This document shows, one piece after another, positions 5,891 through 64,000 of a DNA stretch of 64,000 nucleotides. The notes beneath the pieces are model-generated. The model was not told where the DNA came from, searched no databases, and saw only the letters and a program-made list of their open reading frames with translations. Source of the stretch: a virus (lineage: Duplodnaviria; Caudoviricetes); the IMG/VR virus record IMGVR_UViG_3300034065_000151, positions 76,767-140,766 of that record; one strand, written 5' to 3'. The position numbers and the translations under genes were made by a program. Position 1 is the stretch's first letter. Every line of letters starts with the position of its first letter.

Positions 5891-6153
5891 TATGCATGAC
5901 CAAGAACAGCTTCAATACCATCACGCTTCATACGACGGTATACAGCTTTAGGACATTTTGGATCAAGAGTGACCGAATTGTGAATTTCAATTTGTGGCTG
6001 CATTTCTTTATGACCTTTGGCAGTTTTACCTTCTTTCATAACAGTCACTTTATGCTGGACATAACCGTAACGGGTATAAGCACCTTCAAGCACACCAGTT
6101 TTAACTAATTGGCGAACGATAATACGTAATGCTTTGGCTTTCTTTTGATTCAT
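5890..6153 (-). CDS. hypothetical basic protein
   Basis: 87-aa ORF translationally coupled to both neighbours. Confidence 0.7.
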   Translation of the reverse strand: MNQKKAKALRIIVRQLVKTGVLEGAYTRYGYVQHKVTVMKEGKTAKGHKEMQPQIEIHNSVTLDPKCPKAVYRRMKRDGIEAVLGHA

Positions 6154-6326
6154 TTTATTTCCTTGGTTGAATTGAGAACTTCTACAAAATTGATTGCTGC
6201 TTGTTTTACATCTTCTTCATATGCTCGTTGGGATTTTACTGCTGGAACCAAATCACTAACAATTTCCTGAATTTTTTCTTCAGGCAAATTACCAACATCC
6301 ACATAAAAAATTCTTCGATTACTCAT
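6150..6326 (-). CDS. 58-aa mini-protein carrying the T4-type portal clip motif (not in the ORF track)
   Basis: MSNRRIFYVDVGNLPEEKIQEIVSDLVPAVKSQRAYEEDVKQAAINFVEVLNSTKEIK; AAGGA Shine-Dalgarno; ATGA overlap with the next gene. Confidence 0.75.
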   Translation of the reverse strand: MSNRRIFYVDVGNLPEEKIQEIVSDLVPAVKSQRAYEEDVKQAAINFVEVLNSTKEIK

Positions 6327-6335
6327 CTTATTTCC

Positions 6336-6632
6336 TTAATAATTTAAAATACTATTGGTATTAAAGTACATATTATACAACTCAACTAATACATCACCAT
6401 GACAAGCATCAGGTTTACACCAACAGCCTAATGTTAAACCTTTTAATTCTGGTAGAGAATTAAATAATTCAGGAGTATCTAAAATATATTGTCTATACTT
6501 TTCGATAACTTCTTTACGAGTTCCATGAACTCCTATTATAAATGGATTTCCCCATTTACTTGGTCTCGTAATTATAAAATCGTAGTTGTCCCTTTTGCAG
6601 TGGACAACATTAATCTTCTTGTTTTTCTTCAT
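6336..6632 (-). CDS. DUF4326-family protein
   Basis: RPSKWGNPF and LGCWCKPxxCHGDVL motifs. Confidence 0.85.
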   Translation of the reverse strand: MKKNKKINVVHCKRDNYDFIITRPSKWGNPFIIGVHGTRKEVIEKYRQYILDTPELFNSLPELKGLTLGCWCKPDACHGDVLVELYNMYFNTNSILNY

Positions 6633-7035
6633 GTTTTAAATGGGCACGGTCAATAGCTTCAGCCGCCGCTTGAGGTACATCATTTGGAATCTCTACATAA
6701 GCACCAAGTACATATGCACGACCACCTTCAGCCCACTCGGGATTTACAATTTGTTTAGGTCCACCCAACCACGAGAATGCATGTGCATTCATGTTGTTAT
6801 TTGTGGTGACAAACCAATTAATATCACCGAGGTCATCACGACCTCGTTTGATAGTTTTTAGAATTTGATATGCTTCTTTTGAAACACCAAGATGTTTTCC
6901 CGTATTCATAATAACTTGACCAATACGAGTAGGACCATCAAGTGAAGTTGCTACTTCATTTTCAATTGATTTTGTTGCTATTAGGTCTATAATTAAAGAA
7001 CCTTTATAAGCAGTAATAGTTGCATGAATTGTCAT
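6610..7035 (-). CDS. hypothetical protein
   Basis: 141-aa ORF in a packed minus-strand operon. Confidence 0.7.
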   Translation of the reverse strand: MTIHATITAYKGSLIIDLIATKSIENEVATSLDGPTRIGQVIMNTGKHLGVSKEAYQILKTIKRGRDDLGDINWFVTTNNNMNAHAFSWLGGPKQIVNPEWAEGGRAYVLGAYVEIPNDVPQAAAEAIDRAHLKHEEKQED

Positions 7036-7038
7036 CTT

Positions 7039-7254
7039 TTAATCCTCAGTAAATTCAACAATAGTTTTCCAAGTAATAGGACCACAGCCTTCATATTGGC
7101 CCTCAAACTTAGTACCTTCTTTACATACATCAAATCGCCATGCTTCATCTTCTTGACCTTCAGTAGCAATCTTACTACGGAAAGCATAAAGACCTGCTTT
7201 AGTTACTGTGAATTGACCAATTTCAGATTCACAAATCATTGTTAGTTTTGACAT
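7039..7254 (-). CDS. hypothetical protein
   Basis: 71-aa ORF downstream of an extended -10 motif. Confidence 0.65.
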   Translation of the reverse strand: MSKLTMICESEIGQFTVTKAGLYAFRSKIATEGQEDEAWRFDVCKEGTKFEGQYEGCGPITWKTIVEFTED

Positions 7255-7289
7255 AATTATGTCCCAATAAATTAATATTTCGAACTTTA

Positions 7290-7298
7290 ATTATAACA
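7290..7298 (-). promoter_or_regulatory. sigma70-type extended -10 promoter (TGTTATAAT)
   Basis: Intergenic TGnTATAAT; the same motif recurs at 14660 and 53568. Confidence 0.55.
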
Positions 7299-7306
7299 CA
7301 AAATTG

Positions 7307-7915
7307 TCATAAAATACCAGAATATCTTGGATTTTTATCACTATCAACATGTTCAATAAGATAACCATTATTTTGTTTGAACAACAATACTTCCCATTTA
7401 GAAACACTTGCTGTTCCTAGCTTACCAAGCTTCGGCCGTAATATAATAAACTTAACTTGTTCCGGTGGAATCATTAGGTTTTCAATATATACTGAATCTG
7501 ACGCATGTGCAAAATCAATTTTATATAATTTCTTAGGACTACCATTAGGTATCTGTGTTATTTCAAAGGTACCACTCGGAAATTGTGCAGAGTGATGTGT
7601 ACTTGGGTTTGGATGAATTAATGCTTTTCTACCTTTTGTATCAGTAACAAATTTAACTAAGCAATCAATGAAAGCCGTTCGTGCTCTATAACTTATATTT
7701 GGGTTTTCCTTACCAAGGGCTGTTTTAATTGTTTCTTTATCAGGTGGGATGAACATCATCCCTGCTTGTTTGGAAATCCATGGGCCAAGATAATTACTTG
7801 CCCGCTGATACATTTCATAGTATCCGGTAATTATTTTAAGTAAGTCAGAAAAGTCTGAAGTGTTTCGAGAGATATCATGTTTTGCATTCCATCTATTTTT
7901 ATTGTCTGTATCCAT
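7307..7915 (-). CDS. hypothetical protein
   Basis: 202-aa ORF; only a weak resemblance to the TnpB N-terminal half. Confidence 0.7.
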   Translation of the reverse strand: MDTDNKNRWNAKHDISRNTSDFSDLLKIITGYYEMYQRASNYLGPWISKQAGMMFIPPDKETIKTALGKENPNISYRARTAFIDCLVKFVTDTKGRKALIHPNPSTHHSAQFPSGTFEITQIPNGSPKKLYKIDFAHASDSVYIENLMIPPEQVKFIILRPKLGKLGTASVSKWEVLLFKQNNGYLIEHVDSDKNPRYSGIL

Positions 7916-7944
7916 TATATCATAAGGTTGGGGTTGGGGGATTA

Positions 7945-8595
7945 CTATTCATCATTTGAATAGTCATGAGGAGTGCACCAAAAGGTTGGGCACTTTAATA
8001 GGTCATCGAAATAATGTACCTGGAGAGTTTGTTCACAACAACCATCTGATTCAAGATCATAAGTTGTAAGTTCAAATCGTGGAAGAGGAGTCTCTTGCTT
8101 TAGATCAGTATAAGCAGTATGACTTTTCTTAACAATAACAAATACGGGAGTACGATTCCATTTGAAAATCAACATTGGAAATTTACTTGTTTTTAAAGCA
8201 TCAACTTCAGATTCTTTAAACCATTTAAAAATGTTTGCAGTATTTGCAGCAAGAGAAGTAAAACTATCTGAGTCAGCATAACTCTTACATTCAATAGAAT
8301 GTAAGAAAGTTAAACCGGCTTTTTTTTCATTGATTGGTACAACGTCAGCGGTGAATATCTTCATAGCTTCAGCACCAAACATATCACCAAACTTTTCAAA
8401 GTTCTTACCACCAACTCGTGCACCAGAACCTGGACTACGAATGAAATTCAATGGTGCTAATGCAGCTGATAGCTTTTTAGCAACTTGTCCTTCAAATGAG
8501 TTACCTTTGGCTTTACCGCCACCGGGTCTCATTTTACGTTTTTTAGGGGAAACTGAATCCATGTCAGCATCGCTAATGGTAGATTTTTTAGTCAT
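7945..8595 (-). CDS. Holliday junction resolvase-like PD-(D/E)XK nuclease
   Basis: KGNSFE, RSPGSGA, ADV and IECK motifs. Confidence 0.75.
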   Translation of the reverse strand: MTKKSTISDADMDSVSPKKRKMRPGGGKAKGNSFEGQVAKKLSAALAPLNFIRSPGSGARVGGKNFEKFGDMFGAEAMKIFTADVVPINEKKAGLTFLHSIECKSYADSDSFTSLAANTANIFKWFKESEVDALKTSKFPMLIFKWNRTPVFVIVKKSHTAYTDLKQETPLPRFELTTYDLESDGCCEQTLQVHYFDDLLKCPTFWCTPHDYSNDE

Positions 8596-8630
8596 ATTTT
8601 ATAGGGAGTAGTTAAAAAGGAATTACCTTT

Positions 8631-8638
8631 TATTTATA
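8631..8638 (-). promoter_or_regulatory. late promoter TATAAATA
   Basis: Exact consensus upstream of the resolvase gene. Confidence 0.6.
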
Positions 8639-8926
8639 CTATTCCGGGTCCCATACTTTAAACCATGATGTTAAGGGCTTAGTATGATATAAAACAGTTC
8701 GTGAAAGGATGACCAATCTGAGTTGACATTTGCCCTTTTTGACCTCAAATGTCTTATGACAAACATATTTCTGTTTAACTTTAAATGGGAAATTGATGCA
8801 AATATACCAACCATTAAGGAATTCTGATTTATACTTATCTAACTGGATATTGTCACCATACACAATAAATGCATCTTTACTGAAAGGTTTTCCTTCTAGT
8901 CTATCTTGTTCTAATATTAATTTCAT
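8639..8926 (-). CDS. hypothetical protein
   Basis: Probable start at MKLILEQ (8926), giving an ATGA overlap with the upstream gene. Confidence 0.55.
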   Translation of the reverse strand: MKLILEQDRLEGKPFSKDAFIVYGDNIQLDKYKSEFLNGWYICINFPFKVKQKYVCHKTFEVKKGKCQLRLVILSRTVLYHTKPLTSWFKVWDPE

Positions 8927-9183
8927 GGGTTGGATAAGGTATAGATACACAAGTTTCTGGCCTGTGTAAGTCGGGTTAAACATTCAAATAATATGCCAGG
9001 AGTAACTAAATTGCCACTAGTCATATGACAAAGCTGTAAAATAGATGATTCAATTTCATTAATTGTTTTCTGATCAGGAATCACCGCTTTAAAATGAGTC
9101 TCAATAAAATATATTGGATCATGTATTAAACTAGCTTGTTGAGATAGGGTTAACTTTGGTGGTGGTATATTATTGTATGTCAT
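8923..9183 (-). CDS. small protein with a terminase large subunit N-terminal motif
   Basis: HDPIYFIETHFK resembles the DPxYFIxxY segment of T4-type gp17. Confidence 0.5.
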   Translation of the reverse strand: MTYNNIPPPKLTLSQQASLIHDPIYFIETHFKAVIPDQKTINEIESSILQLCHMTSGNLVTPGILFECLTRLTQARNLCIYTLSNP

Positions 9184-9581
9184 TCAGCATCATCTTCCGG
9201 GATAACATTAACACCAAGCAAATTGATATCAGTAATTTCTTTTGTACCATTATCTCGCATGTGTACATTACCTGTAGAATAAGAGCGATAAGAAACTGGA
9301 ACATGACCATTTATTAAGGTTTCTAATATATGTCCCTGATGTGTATCAGCAACTTTAATTGTACCAATCATGTTACCTCCTTCTAGTTTCAAATCAGAAA
9401 CAGTAAAGGCTACATCTTTTTGATCTATAGTACAACCAATTGAACAACCAATAATTCCAGGCAATGGCTGGTTCTTAGCCTTCCATTCATCAATCGCTTT
9501 TTGTAAAGCTTCTGATGAGTAACAATTGCCATTCCGTGTTGGTACATCAGCTTTTAATATATCAACCTTAAATTCTTCCAT
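9180..9581 (-). CDS. degenerate T4 gp21-like prohead protease (probably inactive)
   Basis: ADVPTRNGNCY, TIDxxDVAF and GTIKVADTHQGHILETLI align to gp21; catalytic GELxHP reads GIIGCS and GVSSRG reads VSYRSYS. Confidence 0.7.
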   Translation of the reverse strand: MEEFKVDILKADVPTRNGNCYSSEALQKAIDEWKAKNQPLPGIIGCSIGCTIDQKDVAFTVSDLKLEGGNMIGTIKVADTHQGHILETLINGHVPVSYRSYSTGNVHMRDNGTKEITDINLLGVNVIPEDDAE

Positions 9582-9582
9582 C

Positions 9583-11553
9583 TCAGTCTCCTAAAATTCG
9601 GGAAAAGCCCGATTCCTTTCTAACTACGACCGTTTTATCAAATCGGCCGACAGCCTCAGGACGATGTGAAATAATCCACATACTCAAATTATCTTCCCGA
9701 GTCTTACCCTTCAACAACTTAAATATGTTATTAACACCTAATGAATCCAAACCACCATCAATCTCATCAACAAACAAACAGTTCACATGAGAATGTAAAT
9801 GATGCAATACATCCCTAAATGATAATGACAATGAAAGATTAACACGTTTCTTTTCACCACTGGAAAGGTTACCGAAATCCAATTCACGACCATACTGTAC
9901 CACAGTACAGCTCATATCATCATCAAACTTAATAACATGAGGTAAACCCAATTCTCTGGTGTAATAAAATAAACGCTTATTCAAGAATGGAATTGTACGG
10001 CTAATAATTGTACGACGGATAAATGAATTCTTATCAGTTAACAGTTTCAATAGGAATTGCTGATGTTCTATCAGTTTCTTCAATCTATCAAGTTCTGTAT
10101 AATCAACTATATTTATAGGACTTTTCAACAGTTCTTCATGGGCTTCAATATGAGGATTAACAAGAACTGGTTGGTTTTTAAGCTGTTCAAGCACCTCAAT
10201 ATATGGATTAACTGGAATAGGCTGATTTTTAAGTTGTTCAAATACCTCAGTATATGGATTACTTGAATCCTTTAACTCTTTTATTTTGTTTTCAGCAATA
10301 ACAGCATTAGATTCAGCTTTAAGAACTTCTTCAAGACTGCCAAATTTCATTACTTCTAATGCTGATTTCTTATCATTCAATAATGTTGCTAGTTCTGCAT
10401 TTCTAATATTAATTTCATGAATCCATGTATTAACACTTGTTTCTTTATCATGAATAGATTCTTTTAATCCACTTATTTTCTTAGCAGCACCTTCAAATTT
10501 CTGTAAACAGTATGGACACTTTTCATCTACTAAATGCGATAATTCTTTAGTCAGTTTTTTAATATCTGTTTCTAAAATCAAATTATCTTTTTTTAATCCA
10601 TTAATCTCATTAGTGAGTCTGGTTTCTTCTGTTTTAATTCCATTAACTAATACATGAAGTTCCTTTTCTACTTCACTATCAAATGTGGAAATTAAATCAT
10701 AATCTTTTTGCAATTTAACAAGTTGGGATTGTTTTTCAGTATCCCATTTGGTGATACGATCTTCTGCTTCCTTAAGCTGTTTAACCGTTTGTTTTTCTGT
10801 ATCAGTATCCCATTTTTCAATACGATCTTTTGCTTCTTGAAGCTGATTAGCATATTGATTTACTGTATCATTATCCCATTTAGTAACACGCTCCTCGGCA
10901 TTTTTAACTTGCTTCTGGAATAAAGCTGATTGAGATTCCTGCTCTTTGATAACAGCTTCTTGAATAGCCGCATTACTTTCAGTTGCTTTGATAATAGCTT
11001 TCAACTTGATTGCCTTCTCAGACAACAAAGTGATATTAAACAATTCTTCAATCTGTGCACGTTGTTGAGCAACTGGCATCAACAAGAATGGGGTTGAGTC
11101 ACCGGAGAATACAATGATCTTAGTAAACAGTTCATAACTGATACCAATAACTTCAAGGATTAACTTATTGGTTTCTGCAGCACTTGCACAAGTAATATCT
11201 TCACCATTCTTAGTGAATGTGATTTCAGTTGATTCACCACGACTGCGATATATCTCATATGTGTCAATACCCTTATCAAAGAATAAGCGTACTTCCAACA
11301 TGGTTTTCTTCAGATTATTGGTTGCATTAATCAATCGCTGAAGCGATATCTGGCTTAATGGTTTATCATAAACCGCATAGACCAATGTATTAAGAATGGT
11401 GGTTTTACCGGAACCATTAGCACCATCATTATCAAGATTCTCGCCTTGAAGATGGGTAGTACCAGGATCACTTAAATCGATGACTGTGGTTTGATTACCA
11501 AAGGATAATACATTGCGGATATGTAGTTCTTTAAAACGAATTGGAATACTCAT
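9583..11553 (-). CDS. gp46: recombination exonuclease ATPase subunit (Rad50/SbcC-like)
   Basis: Walker A GANGSGKT, CPYC zinc hook, signature LSSGEK, Walker B FVDE, H-loop ISH. Confidence 0.95.
   Translation of the reverse strand: MSIPIRFKELHIRNVLSFGNQTTVIDLSDPGTTHLQGENLDNDGANGSGKTTILNTLVYAVYDKPLSQISLQRLINATNNLKKTMLEVRLFFDKGIDTYEIYRSRGESTEITFTKNGEDITCASAAETNKLILEVIGISYELFTKIIVFSGDSTPFLLMPVAQQRAQIEELFNITLLSEKAIKLKAIIKATESNAAIQEAVIKEQESQSALFQKQVKNAEERVTKWDNDTVNQYANQLQEAKDRIEKWDTDTEKQTVKQLKEAEDRITKWDTEKQSQLVKLQKDYDLISTFDSEVEKELHVLVNGIKTEETRLTNEINGLKKDNLILETDIKKLTKELSHLVDEKCPYCLQKFEGAAKKISGLKESIHDKETSVNTWIHEINIRNAELATLLNDKKSALEVMKFGSLEEVLKAESNAVIAENKIKELKDSSNPYTEVFEQLKNQPIPVNPYIEVLEQLKNQPVLVNPHIEAHEELLKSPINIVDYTELDRLKKLIEHQQFLLKLLTDKNSFIRRTIISRTIPFLNKRLFYYTRELGLPHVIKFDDDMSCTVVQYGRELDFGNLSSGEKKRVNLSLSLSFRDVLHHLHSHVNCLFVDEIDGGLDSLGVNNIFKLLKGKTREDNLSMWIISHRPEAVGRFDKTVVVRKESGFSRILGD
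10125..10260 (-). repeat. three 51-bp (17-aa) tandem repeats in gp46
   Basis: NPYTEVFEQLKNQPIPV / NPYIEVLEQLKNQPVLV / NPHIEAHEELLK. Confidence 0.85.
10735..10900 (-). repeat. three 66-bp (22-aa) tandem repeats in gp46
   Basis: ATCCCA recurs at 10741, 10807 and 10873; peptide RVTKWD / RIEKWD / RITKWD. Confidence 0.85.
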
Positions 11554-12044
11554 AGGAAATAGATTAACTTTGCATTAGTACGGCTGAAATTTATACAGGG
11601 AATGAGTGTTTCACGCATCTCATCAAAGGCTTGTGGACTGAATTGTTTTGAAATAATAAGGTGGTCAACTGTTTTACCACGACCACCATGGGGACGGCTT
11701 ATTAGAAAAATACGATTACCATTTTCAAATTCAATTACATCCTTAGTAAATCTTTTAATTGGGATTCGATATAATTCGGGAATGCTATAAAAAATATCCC
11801 TTAACTGATATAAGATATAATCTTTTAAATTGGCATTAGAAGAAGGAGTGGCAATGATAACATTTTTATTACTTTGATATAAACAAACCCATAAAGTAAA
11901 CAACAAAACATCATCAACATCAGCACCATCTATCAGCTTATCTTCAAAGGTATTACTAAGATCCCTTCCACCATACATAGTTGAAAAGACTTCAAACTTT
12001 GTATGACTTTGTAGTTCAATAATTTGTTGTAAAGTATAGGTCAT
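11550..12044 (-). CDS. degenerate terminase large subunit ATPase fragment (no Walker A; Walker B lost)
   Basis: LWVCLYQSNKNVIIA, IPELYR, KDVIEFENGNRI, RGKTVDHLIISK and LIPCI match the gp17 ATPase core. Confidence 0.7.
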   Translation of the reverse strand: MTYTLQQIIELQSHTKFEVFSTMYGGRDLSNTFEDKLIDGADVDDVLLFTLWVCLYQSNKNVIIATPSSNANLKDYILYQLRDIFYSIPELYRIPIKRFTKDVIEFENGNRIFLISRPHGGRGKTVDHLIISKQFSPQAFDEMRETLIPCINFSRTNAKLIYFL

Positions 12045-12412
12045 GTGAAATATATTGCCCTTCCATTTTTTGGATCCATTGTTAACAAAAGCAATGCCAA
12101 CTGATTCTTGTATCGTTCTAACTCATCAATAATACCCATTGAACAAGCAATCACATTATGCTTTACATTAGCAAATGAATGCATGGTATTGATACCAACA
12201 AAACTGAAATTGCATTTGTTGTATAACTCGATATTAGCAATTGGATGTGGGTTGTATTGAAAGGGAATACTATTCATGGTTGTTAAGATACCAGATAGTT
12301 CAACCGCTTTATCATAAGCAACTATACCCTCTTTATAGATGACAAGATACTTTTCATCTGGACTGTTTTGACCAATCCGAATCATTTTATCAAAGAGATA
12401 GATTTCTTTCAT
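12041..12412 (-). CDS. hypothetical protein, possibly a more diverged terminase-ATPase-like paralog
   Basis: IELYNKCNFSF, GIIDE and terminal GRAIYFT loosely parallel the neighbouring 164-aa protein. Confidence 0.4.
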   Translation of the reverse strand: MKEIYLFDKMIRIGQNSPDEKYLVIYKEGIVAYDKAVELSGILTTMNSIPFQYNPHPIANIELYNKCNFSFVGINTMHSFANVKHNVIACSMGIIDELERYKNQLALLLLTMDPKNGRAIYFT

Positions 12413-13449
12413 AGTGTTTCATAGATTTCTACAAGAATATCAGGTTCGATAGTTACAGTACGAGTTACACCAGTTTTTAACATAGTAATGACTGCATCAT
12501 TTAATAAACTTAAATCAAGATCATCAATGGTTTCATCACCATTAATTGAGTTCTTTTTCTCTTCAGAATTTTCTTCCAGTGAGAACTCACGGAATGTACC
12601 AGCCTTCAGCATTTCATCCTTAAAGGACTGGGCATCTGAATAGCTAATATCTGTGTCAATAATACATTGTACCCGACATTTAGGTGGGAATGTTAAGGTT
12701 GGATCATTCAACACATCTGAAAGTTTTACCTTACGGAATGTTGGACAGCCTTCCCAATTAATAAAATCCACATCTTCTGTTCTGGTATCTAATATTGACA
12801 TACCACGATTTTCATCCCAAGCATCACCGAAGTTAGTTGGAAAGGTATTACCAATATAGATTACATTATCATTAGCTTGACGTTTGTGATAGTGACCAGA
12901 GAAGATATAAGTTGGGCCTTTAAAGACTTTATGATCTGGACCATGTTCCATCATTCTATCGGAACCGGTTACTACAAAGTTCTTGAATTCAAAGTGACCG
13001 AATACATATTTAGGCTTATGCTTTTTAATAATAGCTGCAGCATTACCATATTCTGCATCAAATAAGTATGGGAAGAATATACACTTTTCATTATCAATGT
13101 GGTCATTAAGTGGTTCGTCCACTAATCGAACATTTAAGAATTGAGTGTAATGATAAGTAGAGAATTGGTACCGGTCATTGCGATGATAAAGATCATGATT
13201 ACCAACCAGAAAATAGATTGGTAAGCCGAGTTTATTTAATTTATCTAAGGCATCATAGGAAGCATTTAATGTAGCTACATTAATTGCATTCCTATTTTCA
13301 AACCAGTCACCCATGAAAACAATAGTATCACATTTATTCTTCTTGACCTGAGACATAAACCAGTCTACATATTCCGTGCAGTCTTGGTTATGTTGATCAC
13401 TATTATTACGACATCCCCAATGGATGTCGGTAAACATTGCTATTTTCAT
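12409..13449 (-). CDS. gp47: recombination endonuclease subunit (Mre11/SbcD-like)
   Basis: DIHWG, GDWF, GNHD, GHFE and SGHYH phosphoesterase motifs. Confidence 0.95.
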   Translation of the reverse strand: MKIAMFTDIHWGCRNNSDQHNQDCTEYVDWFMSQVKKNKCDTIVFMGDWFENRNAINVATLNASYDALDKLNKLGLPIYFLVGNHDLYHRNDRYQFSTYHYTQFLNVRLVDEPLNDHIDNEKCIFFPYLFDAEYGNAAAIIKKHKPKYVFGHFEFKNFVVTGSDRMMEHGPDHKVFKGPTYIFSGHYHKRQANDNVIYIGNTFPTNFGDAWDENRGMSILDTRTEDVDFINWEGCPTFRKVKLSDVLNDPTLTFPPKCRVQCIIDTDISYSDAQSFKDEMLKAGTFREFSLEENSEEKKNSINGDETIDDLDLSLLNDAVITMLKTGVTRTVTIEPDILVEIYETL

Positions 13450-13451
13450 TA

Positions 13452-13673
13452 TTAACCTTGAACTTTATTCATTGTCCATTTACCATCACGGAAATCACCA
13501 CGAGGATCATATTGACCTTCGGTACCAAATCCATCATTATTACCATGGATATCATTAATCATGAATTCTAAATCCTGTGCAAATTCTTTTGCAAAGTTAT
13601 TATCTTCATTGGATAATTTAATAAGACGAGTCAATACTAATTCAATATTTTTTTGAATTTTTGTTTGCTTCAT
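13452..13673 (-). CDS. hypothetical protein
   Basis: 73-aa ORF coupled to gp55; GFGTEGQxDPRGD motif. Confidence 0.7.
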   Translation of the reverse strand: MKQTKIQKNIELVLTRLIKLSNEDNNFAKEFAQDLEFMINDIHGNNDGFGTEGQYDPRGDFRDGKWTMNKVQG

Positions 13674-14614
13674 TACTTTTCCTTTTTGGCTTTTGGCATT
13701 TTCAAAATTTTAAGTTCTTTAACAACTTTAGGAGCTTTGACAGGTTTCTCTTTTTTAACTTTAGGAACCTTTAGCTTTACTACTTTTTCTTTCTTAACCT
13801 TAACAGGTTTCTCCACTGCAACTTCACCTTCGGGCTTTGGTTTACGCTGGAACATAATCCGTTTAGGAGGTGGAGCTTTAACTGGTAATGCGGCGACTTC
13901 ATCAACCTTACCAACAGCACCTTCTCGGATTGAAATAGCACCAGTTTCTGGGTCTATAATTATATCTTCTGCTTTGTATGTGGTAATAGAGCTTGGTGAT
14001 TTCCCCCGATTCCGTACTCGATCTTCAAATGGAGTAACTGGACATTGTGTTGGTGCTTTAGGAACATCGACAAGAACACCATCAACTAAGACTTTCTGTT
14101 GAAGTAGTTCTTCATCTTCGGCTTCTAAAAGGAACTGATTATATACTTCTACATGCTCATCTGATTCTTTAATTTCAAAATGAGATTCATCTTTTTCACC
14201 TTGTAAGAAATTGTATGATGGATTTGATCCAGCATCAATTAATAACATATCTCTAATATTTCGGTGTTTTTTCTCATCAGCAATACATTGTAAGAACGTA
14301 TTGTGAATAGCAGATGTGTAGTATGAGAAGGGATTTGGTTTATCACTTCTATCAAGATCAAAGTTTAAAGCGTTTTTACATAGATTTTCAACTGCAGTCG
14401 AAACCATATCAGCTCTAAAGGTATAATTTACAAAGTTACCTTTACGTGAATAGCGCTCTGCAATCATCCATATCATGGCGATAAGTTCACTTGTCACTTC
14501 ATTCAGTTCTTTGGCTTTGATAACTTCTGGTAATAATACACCATTCGTTACGTAATGCCCAACTTCACTTGTGGATTTCTCTCTTTTTACTCGTTTTGCT
14601 TTAGTTTGAATCAA
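13673..14614 (-). CDS. gp55: late-transcription sigma factor with a long C-terminal extension
   Basis: HYVTN, IAERYSRKGNFVNYTF, DMV, NFD..NPFSYYT and EKK motifs; T4-like 55-47-46 gene order; TTG start. Confidence 0.85.
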   Translation of the reverse strand: MIQTKAKRVKREKSTSEVGHYVTNGVLLPEVIKAKELNEVTSELIAMIWMIAERYSRKGNFVNYTFRADMVSTAVENLCKNALNFDLDRSDKPNPFSYYTSAIHNTFLQCIADEKKHRNIRDMLLIDAGSNPSYNFLQGEKDESHFEIKESDEHVEVYNQFLLEAEDEELLQQKVLVDGVLVDVPKAPTQCPVTPFEDRVRNRGKSPSSITTYKAEDIIIDPETGAISIREGAVGKVDEVAALPVKAPPPKRIMFQRKPKPEGEVAVEKPVKVKKEKVVKLKVPKVKKEKPVKAPKVVKELKILKMPKAKKEK

Positions 14615-14659: not shown

Positions 14660-14668
14660 ATTATAACA
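14660..14668 (-). promoter_or_regulatory. sigma70-type extended -10 promoter for the gp55-47-46 operon
   Basis: TGTTATAAT in the divergent intergenic region. Confidence 0.55.
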
Positions 14669-62755: not shown

Positions 62756-63745
62756 TTATTTACAGTATTGATTGATCATAAATCGGGCTTTATCCGATTC
62801 TTTTGTTGTATTTTTTATTAATCCTTGTATGGTCCAAATGAATCCATACTTAGCAACACTATCACTGATATCTTCTGAACCTTCAGGTGAGAATGTTATT
62901 TCATATCCAAGTCCTAAAACATCTTCAGCAAGGTGTTGTCCATTCCGATCTTTATCAATTACAAATATTAATCGTCTATGTGATTTACCAAGTAGTATGG
63001 TTTTAGCTTCTGTTAATTTACTACCAACCAAACCCAATCCATTAACTAACATGGCATCAAAAGCGCCTTCAGAAATAAAGAGGGGAGCATTGGTATATTG
63101 ATTAAGAGCATCCATGTTAAACATGACTGCATCTCTTTTAGTGGATATACAATTGTCATATCGTTTTGGTTCATCTTTTAATATGGTACGAGCTTGCCAA
63201 TATATAAGACGTCCATCACGATAATAAGGAATTATTATTCTATTATTATAACGTGTTTCTAACGAAAAGTAAAATGGATACTTGTTAATATCTATATTTC
63301 TGTCAATTAAATAGGTTATTAATTTGACCTGATATTCAGCAAATTCTTCAGTACCACCCAGCCTAAAACTCTTAGGTGGAAAACTTACCTCTGATGTAGA
63401 AGTATCAACTTTTGTAAGACTTGATAGGGTGATTTTCTTTTCTTCAGGTGGCTTTGCAAAGAATGCAGTATTAACAACTGAACTAATATCAGTGTCATCT
63501 ATACCGAAGTCATTAAGAATACCACGCATCTTTTTGGAGATACTACCGGTGAATTCTTCATACTTACAGGCCATCCCACAATTAAAGCAGGAGTAACCAA
63601 TAGTTCCATTTTTAAATTTAAACCCGCCTCGGACTTTATAGTCGTTGCAGCAGGCACATTTTAATGTATGAAATCCGCGGGAATCTAATGCTTTAAAAGG
63701 AATATTCTCACGAATAAGATCTTCTAATTTAGCAGGTTGAATCAT
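62756..63745 (-). CDS. gp61: DNA primase
   Basis: Zn finger CACC..CFNCG, RIIIP, WQAR and TOPRIM motifs EGAFD, DKD. Confidence 0.9.
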   Translation of the reverse strand: MIQPAKLEDLIRENIPFKALDSRGFHTLKCACCNDYKVRGGFKFKNGTIGYSCFNCGMACKYEEFTGSISKKMRGILNDFGIDDTDISSVVNTAFFAKPPEEKKITLSSLTKVDTSTSEVSFPPKSFRLGGTEEFAEYQVKLITYLIDRNIDINKYPFYFSLETRYNNRIIIPYYRDGRLIYWQARTILKDEPKRYDNCISTKRDAVMFNMDALNQYTNAPLFISEGAFDAMLVNGLGLVGSKLTEAKTILLGKSHRRLIFVIDKDRNGQHLAEDVLGLGYEITFSPEGSEDISDSVAKYGFIWTIQGLIKNTTKESDKARFMINQYCK

Positions 63746-64000
63746 GTTTTTTCTGTTTTACAAGCTGTCGAATGAATACACTATAGATAATAATACAACA
63801 CCAACTTTCAGCTGAGTTTAGTAACTCCGGTTTAAATCTTAAACCATTTCTGATAAGTTCCCACATGGCTTCCTTCTTCCATTCTTCTTCAAAACATTTA
63901 TATTTCCTAAAAGATTTTGAAATCTTAGTCCAGCGACGATCTATTTCTCTTTGCCAGAGTTCAATAAGATGTGGTGAAGGTGCTCCTCTTTCATGAGCAG
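63729..64000 (-). CDS. second, C-terminally truncated gp55-like protein (partial; not in the ORF track)
   Basis: Manual translation ...LIELWQREIDRRWTKISKSFRKYKCFEEEWKKEAMWELIRNGLRFKPELLNSAESWCCIIIYSVFIRQLVKQKKHDSTC is collinear with the core of the 13673-14614 gp55. Confidence 0.55.
   Translation of the reverse strand, partial: AHERGAPSPHLIELWQREIDRRWTKISKSFRKYKCFEEEWKKEAMWELIRNGLRFKPELLNSAESWCCIIIYSVFIRQLVKQKKHDSTC

Follow-up and report, generated by a model that had tools for sequence, protein, structure and literature searches.

A 64,000-nucleotide (nt) window of viral DNA, corresponding to bases 76767-140766 (the right-hand part) of a 140,766-bp linear IMG/VR contig (IMGVR_UViG_3300034065_000151; approximately 40% complete according to CheckV), carries on its minus strand a series of small open reading frames (ORFs) set within and downstream of a gp55-gp47-gp46 operon. 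In an earlier note, several of these ORFs were described as catalytically dead pieces of portal, large terminase (TerL) and prohead protease and were proposed to act as decoys. From sequence comparisons, two of them, referred to here as mini-TerL and mini-protease, can firmly be regarded as pseudoenzymes of ancient origin that are maintained by selection and have become fixed in the gp47-gp46 operon of a single clade. A third ORF of 58 amino acids (aa), referred to as the portal piece, can equally firmly be regarded as a recent copy of the portal tip on which TerL docks, hypervariable in one patch. The source, judged from its relatives, is an uncultured jumbo T4-like phage from peat that is related to RaK2 and XacN1. 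Its gp47 was most similar to the counterparts in two jumbo myoviruses, Ralstonia RsoM2USA (44%) and Xanthomonas XacN1 (40%), with those of RaK2-like phages next, and near-identical DNA was present in peat metagenomes.

The small ORFs and the genes that accompany them are as follows.

11550-12044, minus strand: mini-TerL (orf164), 164 aa, between gp47 and gp46 (phrog_5989, the phage's own TerL, AlphaFold2 model)
9180-9581, minus strand: mini-protease (orf133), 133 aa, directly downstream of gp46 (phrog_207, Peptidase_S77)
6150-6326, minus strand: portal clip-tip microprotein (the portal piece), 58 aa (Portal_T4, phrog_213)
12041-12412, minus strand: orf123, probably TerL-ATPase-like (ESM Atlas model only)
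8923-9183, minus strand: orf86, a small, fast-evolving helical protein coupled to the mini-protease (no family match)
12409-13449, minus strand: gp47, Mre11/SbcD-like nuclease subunit, operon backbone (Metallophos 2.8e-12, phrog_100 1e-66)
9583-11553, minus strand: gp46, Rad50/SbcC-like ATPase subunit, operon backbone (SMC_N 5e-16, phrog_77 1e-83)
13673-14614, minus strand: gp55, late sigma factor, first gene of the operon (phrog_234 8e-26)
14660-14668, minus strand: extended -10 promoter-like motif TGTTATAAT upstream of gp55 (read from the sequence)

The gene order on the minus strand was gp55, a 73-aa ORF, gp47, orf123, orf164, gp46, orf133 and orf86, and continued past orf86 with a 95-aa ORF, a PDDEXK/RusA-like nuclease gene, several small ORFs and the 58-aa ORF at 6150-6326. 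Mini-TerL and mini-protease lie in the gp55-gp47-gp46 operon, apart from the packaging genes. The ORFs were intact and, as claimed, translationally coupled; the start and stop codons of adjacent genes of the region either overlapped by 4 nt or were 1 nt apart.

Structure and distribution of mini-TerL

Derivation of the ORF at 11550-12044 from TerL was evident from the agreement of profile searches, sequence comparison with the phage's own TerL and predicted structure. In profile searches, the protein matched the TerL family phrog_5989 (6.5e-8) and Terminase_6N (0.008), and BLASTP against the N-terminal part of the phage's own TerL gave 27% identity (E 1e-11). The AlphaFold2 (AF2) model, obtained with a 52-sequence alignment, had a predicted local distance difference test score (pLDDT) of 95.5. 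In Foldseek comparisons, the model matched the ATPase domain of T4 gp17 with a template modelling (TM) score of 0.82 (E 2.4e-8) and the TerL chain of 8dgc, a complex of TerL with Avs3, with a TM score of 0.71. Its matches in BFVD were TerLs together with a small number of short, uncharacterised proteins of phages.

The predicted fold is that of N-subdomain I of the gp17 ATPase (PDB 2o0h, 3cpe; Terminase_6N), with which mini-TerL shares colinear motifs, i.e., the N-terminal helices, an LW helix after the P-loop position, an IEFxNG strand and an RG motif. In contrast with gp17, which has approximately 600 aa and is of a type encoded with packaging genes, mini-TerL has approximately 160 aa, is encoded in a recombination operon and lacks the P-loop lysine, the arginine finger, the Walker B Asp-Glu, N-subdomain II and the nuclease domain. 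Its C-terminus corresponds approximately to gp17 residue 290, and no match to Terminase_6C was found in a Pfam search. When catalytic motifs were mapped through T4 gp17, the Walker A motif of the phage's own TerL (SRQSGKT) aligned to LIDGADV in orf164 and the Walker B motif (LYLDE) to LIISKQ. Together with the corresponding mapping of mini-protease through T4 gp21, described below, this result agrees with the earlier statement that the enzyme-derived ORFs have lost catalytic residues.

Among 1.84 billion representative proteins, homologs of 157 to 193 aa that aligned to mini-TerL from end to end were identified by profile search. Neither GK[ST] nor a Walker B DE pair was present in any of 15 aligned family members, among which W52 and G123 were invariant. 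As defined by this alignment, mini-TerL belongs to a newly described family of approximately 160-aa proteins without the Walker A lysine or the Walker B DE pair. Genes of the family occupied the position between gp47 and gp46 in no fewer than five lineages, i.e., that of the window and its close relative L009 and those of L016, L017, L018 (a 332-kb contig) and L019, with stop/start overlaps in the window, L009, L016 and L017. Across these lineages, mini-TerL sequences were 22-28% identical, compared with 58-65% for gp47 and 55-61% for gp46. Two family members were located outside the gp47-gp46 position. The family member P0020 (L020:6001-6549, 182 aa, without a P-loop) was encoded in the head/neck cluster of another T4-like phage, between gp23 and gp13-gp15, a location that fits a packaging-related role.

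Nothing corresponding to mini-TerL was found in cultured phages by megablast or tblastn, and other family members matched only genuine TerLs there. The gp55-gp47-gp46 genes occurred without the insert in the cultured phages RsoM2USA, XaC1 and fHe-Yen9-04, and XacN1 has a fused gp47-gp46 gene. Scans of IMG/VR with mini-TerL, mini-protease and the protein P0005 yielded no relatives, and a word-based protein search returned only the L009-lineage orthologs of each mini-protein. Small proteins of BFVD that resemble mini-TerL in TerL-ATPase fold and size included those of Yersinia phage fHe-Yen9-04 (185 aa), Pectobacterium phage CBB (235 aa) and Acinetobacter phage AbTZA1 (140 aa); unlike mini-TerL, the fHe-Yen9-04 protein is not encoded between gp47 and gp46. 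Small TerL-fold proteins of this kind, from BFVD and from metagenomes, are uncharacterised, and some may be halves of split TerL genes. In addition, many of the metagenomic proteins P0007-P0054 were TerL-N-like proteins of 240-320 aa in which the Walker A lysine was replaced (RQxG[T/G/M/V/I/S/R]T) and the Walker B DE was missing; these may form a wider class of inactive TerL ATPase paralogs.

Mini-protease encoded behind gp46

The assignment of 9180-9581 to prohead protease was likewise upheld. The protein matched phrog_207 (5e-11) and positions 51-167 of Peptidase_S77 (E 1e-5; 25.4 bits, slightly below the 27-bit cut-off), and tblastn reached annotated prohead proteases with values down to 4e-8. 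The best tblastn match, in the record of a 595-kb phage, was a 297-aa ORF and hence no mini-protein. Mini-protease was 25% identical to the phage's own gp21. It resembles T4 gp21 (PDB 5jbl) over the protease core, from which it differs in being shorter by approximately 28 N-terminal and 50 C-terminal residues and in being encoded beside gp46.

Among four mini-proteases, the position of the catalytic His (ELNHP) was occupied by C, C, G and T (Cys in the window), that of the Ser (SSRG) by S, P, P and L (Ser in the window, Pro in L009) and that of the conserved Asp (LDIV) by N, N, S and S (Asn in the window). Copies directly after gp46 were noted in L016 (32% identity) and L017 (25% identity), of 130 aa or 121 aa, and both also matched phrog_207. 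Thus, mini-protease was present behind gp46 in three of the lineages that carry mini-TerL (window/L009, L016 and L017).

Portal-derived microprotein

The identity of the 58-aa ORF as a piece of portal, also proposed earlier, was confirmed by a match above the curated cut-off to positions 205-240 of Pfam Portal_T4 (E 4.5e-6; 26.1 bits, cut-off 22.9 bits), by a match to phrog_213 (2e-7) and by alignment of residues 3-38 to residues 281-316 of T4 gp20, which lie in the clip. The L009 ortholog matched the same Portal_T4 positions (E 4.9e-5); for the three ORFs with profile support taken together, the matches were independently reproduced by the L009 orthologs and the L016 and L017 homologs. Only these positions, of the 433 in Portal_T4, were covered, and the full wing, stem, clip and crown architecture was not present. 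According to PMC4493910, the clip domain of T4 gp20 comprises residues 279-358, the clip-tip residues N291, M292, R295 and K296 contact gp17, and a 24-aa gp20 peptide (residues 288-311), reported in work cited there, binds gp17 and inhibits packaging. Residues 10-33 of the portal piece correspond to this peptide and contain the homologous beta-strand, GN(M/L)P tip and helix alpha6. In contrast with the synthetic peptide, the portal piece is a natural gene product, has an extra conserved C-terminal tail of 26 aa and is hypervariable between close relatives; its binding to TerL is putative.

Differences between the portal pieces of the window and L009 were concentrated in a single patch. Thus, codons 9-32 contained 13 nonsynonymous changes and one synonymous change (Fisher p 8e-7), and nucleotide divergence was 28% in the patch as opposed to 1% in the remaining gene, where no amino-acid change was found in the other 34 codons. 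Those patch residues that were unchanged retained identical codons, which argues against replacement of the patch by a diverged homolog. The full-length portals of the two phages were identical over the clip-tip segment. A diversity-generating retroelement was rejected as the origin of the patch, as the contig contained no template-like repeat. By word-based protein search, the portal piece was found only in the window/L009 lineage. Matches to it in IMG/VR fell within an N-terminal acidic region of a portal of 822 aa that is unrelated, and were taken as chance.

Additional small ORFs, orf123 and orf86

Of two further ORFs that had been viewed as possible pieces of TerL, orf123 (12041-12412) retained this assignment at the level of predicted structure and failed to do so at the level of sequence. 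Its ESM Atlas model (predicted TM score 0.74, exact protein) matched TerL ATPase domains with TM scores of 0.72-0.82 in 10 of 10 rows. No significant Pfam or PHROG match was found, and the similarity of orf123 to the mini-TerL family by hhalign was weak (E 0.014, probability 3%), yet colinear and with a common C-terminal IYF. The protein retains a Walker-B-like IIDE, lacks a P-loop and gave a pLDDT of only 31 in a single-sequence AF2 model. It was present in L009 and absent from L016, L017 and L018; an apparent truncation in L013 proved to be a scaffold gap of Ns. The Atlas model makes it probable that orf123 is another TerL-ATPase-like mini-protein, diverged further than mini-TerL.

For orf86 (8923-9183), assignment to TerL was not sustained. 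This ORF had no family match in Pfam or PHROG, had only a DPIYFI motif in common with TerL (pairwise E 0.024), gave an Atlas model in the form of a generic helical bundle and was 40% identical to its L009 ortholog.

Full-length counterparts

Full-length portal, gp21 and TerL, the presence of which elsewhere in the genome had been named in the earlier note as a point to check, were all located on the contig. The portal has 545 aa and gp21 has 204 aa. TerL is encoded outside the window by a fractured split-intein gene (contig G000 38891-41869, i.e., L007:2892-5870, minus strand) that consists of an N part of 294 aa, ending in a short intein N-fragment (...EVL/CLSAST...), homing-endonuclease-like ORFs of 99/87 aa and 222 aa, and a C part of 381 aa, which starts with an intein C-fragment (...VISHN/CQF...) followed by the nuclease domain. 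The same layout was seen in an independent assembly (L036), and we take it to resemble that of atypical, naturally split TerL inteins. An exact-sequence look-up with the TerL N part matched only the same phage. Identities between the mini-proteins and their full-length counterparts were only 25-27%, which indicates that the former are not recent duplicates.

Selection and evolutionary rates

The ORFs were intact in both the window phage and L009, between which the synonymous divergence (dS) of the operon backbone was 0.5-0.8. Ratios of nonsynonymous to synonymous divergence (dN/dS) in this comparison were about 0.06 for gp46, gp47 and gp55 (0.068 for gp46, 0.057 for gp47), 0.06 for orf123, 0.20 for mini-protease, 0.24 for mini-TerL, 0.60 for orf86 and 1.05 for the portal piece. 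Mini-TerL, mini-protease and orf123 are thus under purifying selection. Neutral evolution, which had been raised as an objection to a function, was not found for these three ORFs, given dN/dS values of 0.06-0.24 and retention of synteny where gp46 was only 55-61% identical. At the same time, mini-TerL and mini-protease evolve much faster than gp46 and gp47 or the genuine head genes. Thus, the phage's own portal and gp21 were 98% and 99% identical between the window and L009, whereas the mini-proteins were 73-80% identical.

Expression signals

The motif TGTTATAAT was located approximately 45 nt upstream of the gp55 start and was identical in L009. The sigma70-like promoter reported earlier is accordingly retained as an extended -10 motif that is kept in the relative; on the other side, a generic promoter scan found no greater number of sites than in shuffled sequence. 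The count of late promoters was also at chance level, and no TATAAATA, the T4-type late-promoter consensus, was present directly upstream of the mini-protein genes. Pre-late expression of these genes is plausible from the occurrence of TGTTATAAT upstream of gp55 and the lack of a late consensus directly upstream of them. A copy of TATAAATA was noted at window positions 8631-8638 (minus strand), approximately 35 nt upstream of the PDDEXK/RusA-like gene, which suggests that late transcription begins separately at a point downstream of the mini-protein genes.

Interpretation

No proteins of tailed phages are more conserved than TerL, portal and prohead protease, which are now also recognised as major triggers of bacterial immunity. 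Inert versions of all three, selected in one locus, are undescribed in the literature found and form new families built from known folds. The reading tentatively preferred, although short of being probable, is that the mini-proteins are non-catalytic competitive binders of packaging or maturation partners with a variable external target. The ORFs are then exapted derivatives, each the size of a domain, of three head-packaging vertex proteins. Mini-TerL and mini-protease are old insertions into the conserved gp55-gp47-gp46 operon of one uncultured jumbo T4-like clade that stayed translationally coupled to gp47 and gp46, and the portal piece and orf123 are later, lineage-specific additions. With folds and surfaces retained and ATP hydrolysis, DNA cutting and protein cleavage lost, action would be by competitive binding, each mini-protein occupying the partner or substrate of its full-length parent (e.g., the clip-tip peptide at the portal-docking site of TerL) with the result that packaging or maturation would be jammed or delayed. 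Because the mini-proteins diverge fast and the phage's own portal and protease are near-invariant, the target would be a variable one outside the phage's own conserved machinery, i.e., co-infecting phages, satellites or host factors.

Competitive binding is suggested by the precedent of the T4 peptide, by the contrast between fast-evolving mini-proteins and near-invariant head genes and by the loss of catalysis. Dominant-negative interference with packaging, one of the functions proposed in the earlier note, gains indirect support from the homology of the portal piece to the inhibitory gp20 peptide 288-311. Blocking by site occupancy rather than catalysis is familiar at host-phage and phage-satellite interfaces, including terminase, from the DNA mimic Ocr and the Ppi protein of Staphylococcus aureus pathogenicity islands (SaPI); unlike the mini-proteins, for which interaction is putative, proteins of this type are not derived from the proteins with which they interfere. 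Several observations weigh against competitive binding. At the position of the basic T4 residue R295, the portal piece is acidic (PEEK in the window and PADK in its L009 ortholog) and may, therefore, not bind a T4-like acidic patch on TerL, and mini-TerL lacks N-subdomain II, the canonical portal-docking surface. Moreover, dN/dS of the whole portal piece was close to 1 on one pair, so that relaxed constraint is possible, the rate estimates in general rest on two close genomes only, and the coupled location between gp47 and gp46 fits a role in that complex equally well. A wider version, in which the locus is a molecular-mimicry module that either jams the motors and proteases of rival phages or satellites or blinds host sensors (Avs, protease-activated CBASS), is somewhat doubtful; in this version, the hypervariable clip-tip patch would be an arms-race footprint.

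The rival explanations differ mainly in the partner that they assign to the mini-proteins. Immune decoys, i.e., inert copies that occupy sensors of TerL (Avs1-3), portal (Avs4, Avs11) or prohead-protease activity (the cyclic-oligonucleotide-based defence system CBASS) without activating them, are unlikely, although all three parents are documented triggers, TerL and portal being recognised by Avs sensors (PMC13581612) and cleavage by prohead protease activating the CD-NTases of CBASS (PMC12991175). In a variant of this explanation, the dead protease could trap substrate and so protect the activation loop of the CD-NTase. The resemblance of the mini-TerL model to the TerL of the Avs3 complex, the arms-race-like appearance of fast divergence and of the clip-tip patch, and the promoter-like motif upstream, suggestive of transcription by host RNA polymerase, are in keeping with decoys. 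However, truncated or catalytically inactive targets are reported to still activate Avs sensors (PMC13581612), so that a mimic made early could trigger the sensor rather than block it. In addition, mini-TerL lacks the P-loop and nuclease domain, and both mini-TerL and mini-protease are in deep, fixed synteny within an essential operon, unlike the patchy islands usual for anti-defence genes. No precedent was found in literature on terminase decoys, inactive terminase-like proteins or inactive prohead-protease paralogs. A low probability is also assigned to a role without mimicry, in which the mini-proteins are accessory or regulatory subunits of the Mre11/Rad50-like gp47/gp46 nuclease, i.e., modules without catalytic activity that attach to the complex or to DNA ends and might, for instance, bring end resection into step with packaging. 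Such a role would account for the insertion of mini-TerL between the two subunit genes (stop and start codons overlap in the window, L009, L016 and L017, and L018 and L019 have the gene in the same place) and is consistent with the position of mini-protease directly behind gp46, with the PDDEXK/RusA-like nuclease downstream and with purifying selection on the mini-proteins. It is less easily reconciled with their rate of change, which is more than twice that of gp46 and gp47 (22-32% versus 55-65% identity), with the operons of cultured relatives, which lack the mini-proteins and in XacN1 have gp47 and gp46 fused, or with the family member in a head/neck cluster, and it leaves the copying of three different head-vertex proteins unexplained.

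Self-directed timing, in which the mini-proteins would for a time restrain the terminase and protease of the phage itself so that cutting or maturation does not begin before late protein suffices, is improbable. The operon is presumably pre-late, with no late consensus directly upstream of the mini-protein genes, and the T4 clip peptide inhibits packaging by T4 itself; yet own portal and gp21 hardly differ between the two phages (98-99% identity), as opposed to differences of 20-27% for the mini-proteins and of 13/24 residues in the clip-tip patch, a pattern not expected of inhibitors directed at conserved machinery of the phage itself, and most T4-like phages do without such genes. Least probable is the view that the ORFs are decaying leftovers of a second head-gene set, left behind by recombination or homing-endonuclease traffic and now without function, which is live mainly for orf86. 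Homing-endonuclease genes at several operon junctions in relatives, indels in the region and the weak constraint on orf86 (dN/dS 0.6, 40% identity) and on the portal piece (dN/dS of approximately 1) are what decay would produce, but decay already largely fails as an account of mini-TerL, mini-protease and orf123, as it is difficult to reconcile with their dN/dS values, with intact frames and with lengths and positions kept across approximately 45% gp46 divergence, with the confident mini-TerL fold or with confinement of portal-piece substitutions to one 24-codon patch.

If competitive binding, as is tentatively preferred, is correct, the mini-proteins would be natural inhibitors of packaging or head maturation, and hence an inter-virus weapon or timing device of a new class; if sensors are blinded, the mini-proteins would constitute the first trigger-mimic decoys. 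In either case, the mini-TerL (approximately 160 aa) and mini-protease (approximately 130 aa) families could provide compact, well-folding reagents for study of terminase, protease and sensor interfaces, and the portal piece, as the natural counterpart of the gp20 288-311 peptide, can be tested directly in T4 packaging assays already in use.

Other features of the region

The gp55 protein of the window has 313 aa and is far longer than the phrog_234 profile (approximately 180 positions), which it matches over residues 36-164; its tail of approximately 130 aa, in which Lys, Pro and Val are abundant (KPVKVKKEK-like), is kept in L009. GIY-YIG homing-endonuclease genes were noted at differing operon junctions in L017 (4225-4956) and L018 (4420-4989). 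Downstream of orf86, the ATG of the 95-aa ORF (8639-8926, minus strand) overlaps the orf86 stop codon (ATGA). This ORF had no family match, and its C-terminal 58 aa are kept in L009 (13201-13389), where no gene was called. Between window positions 6610 and 7160, a 141-aa ORF and the end of a 71-aa ORF are missing from L009, the result of an indel in an otherwise 85-93% identical backbone.

A truncated second copy of gp55, reported earlier at 63729, could not be substantiated, as the ORF there (63729-63998, minus strand) is cut by the contig end and had neither significant similarity to gp55 nor any significant family match. It adjoins the gene for a 329-aa protein (62756-63745) with a Cys-rich, zinc-finger-like N-terminus.

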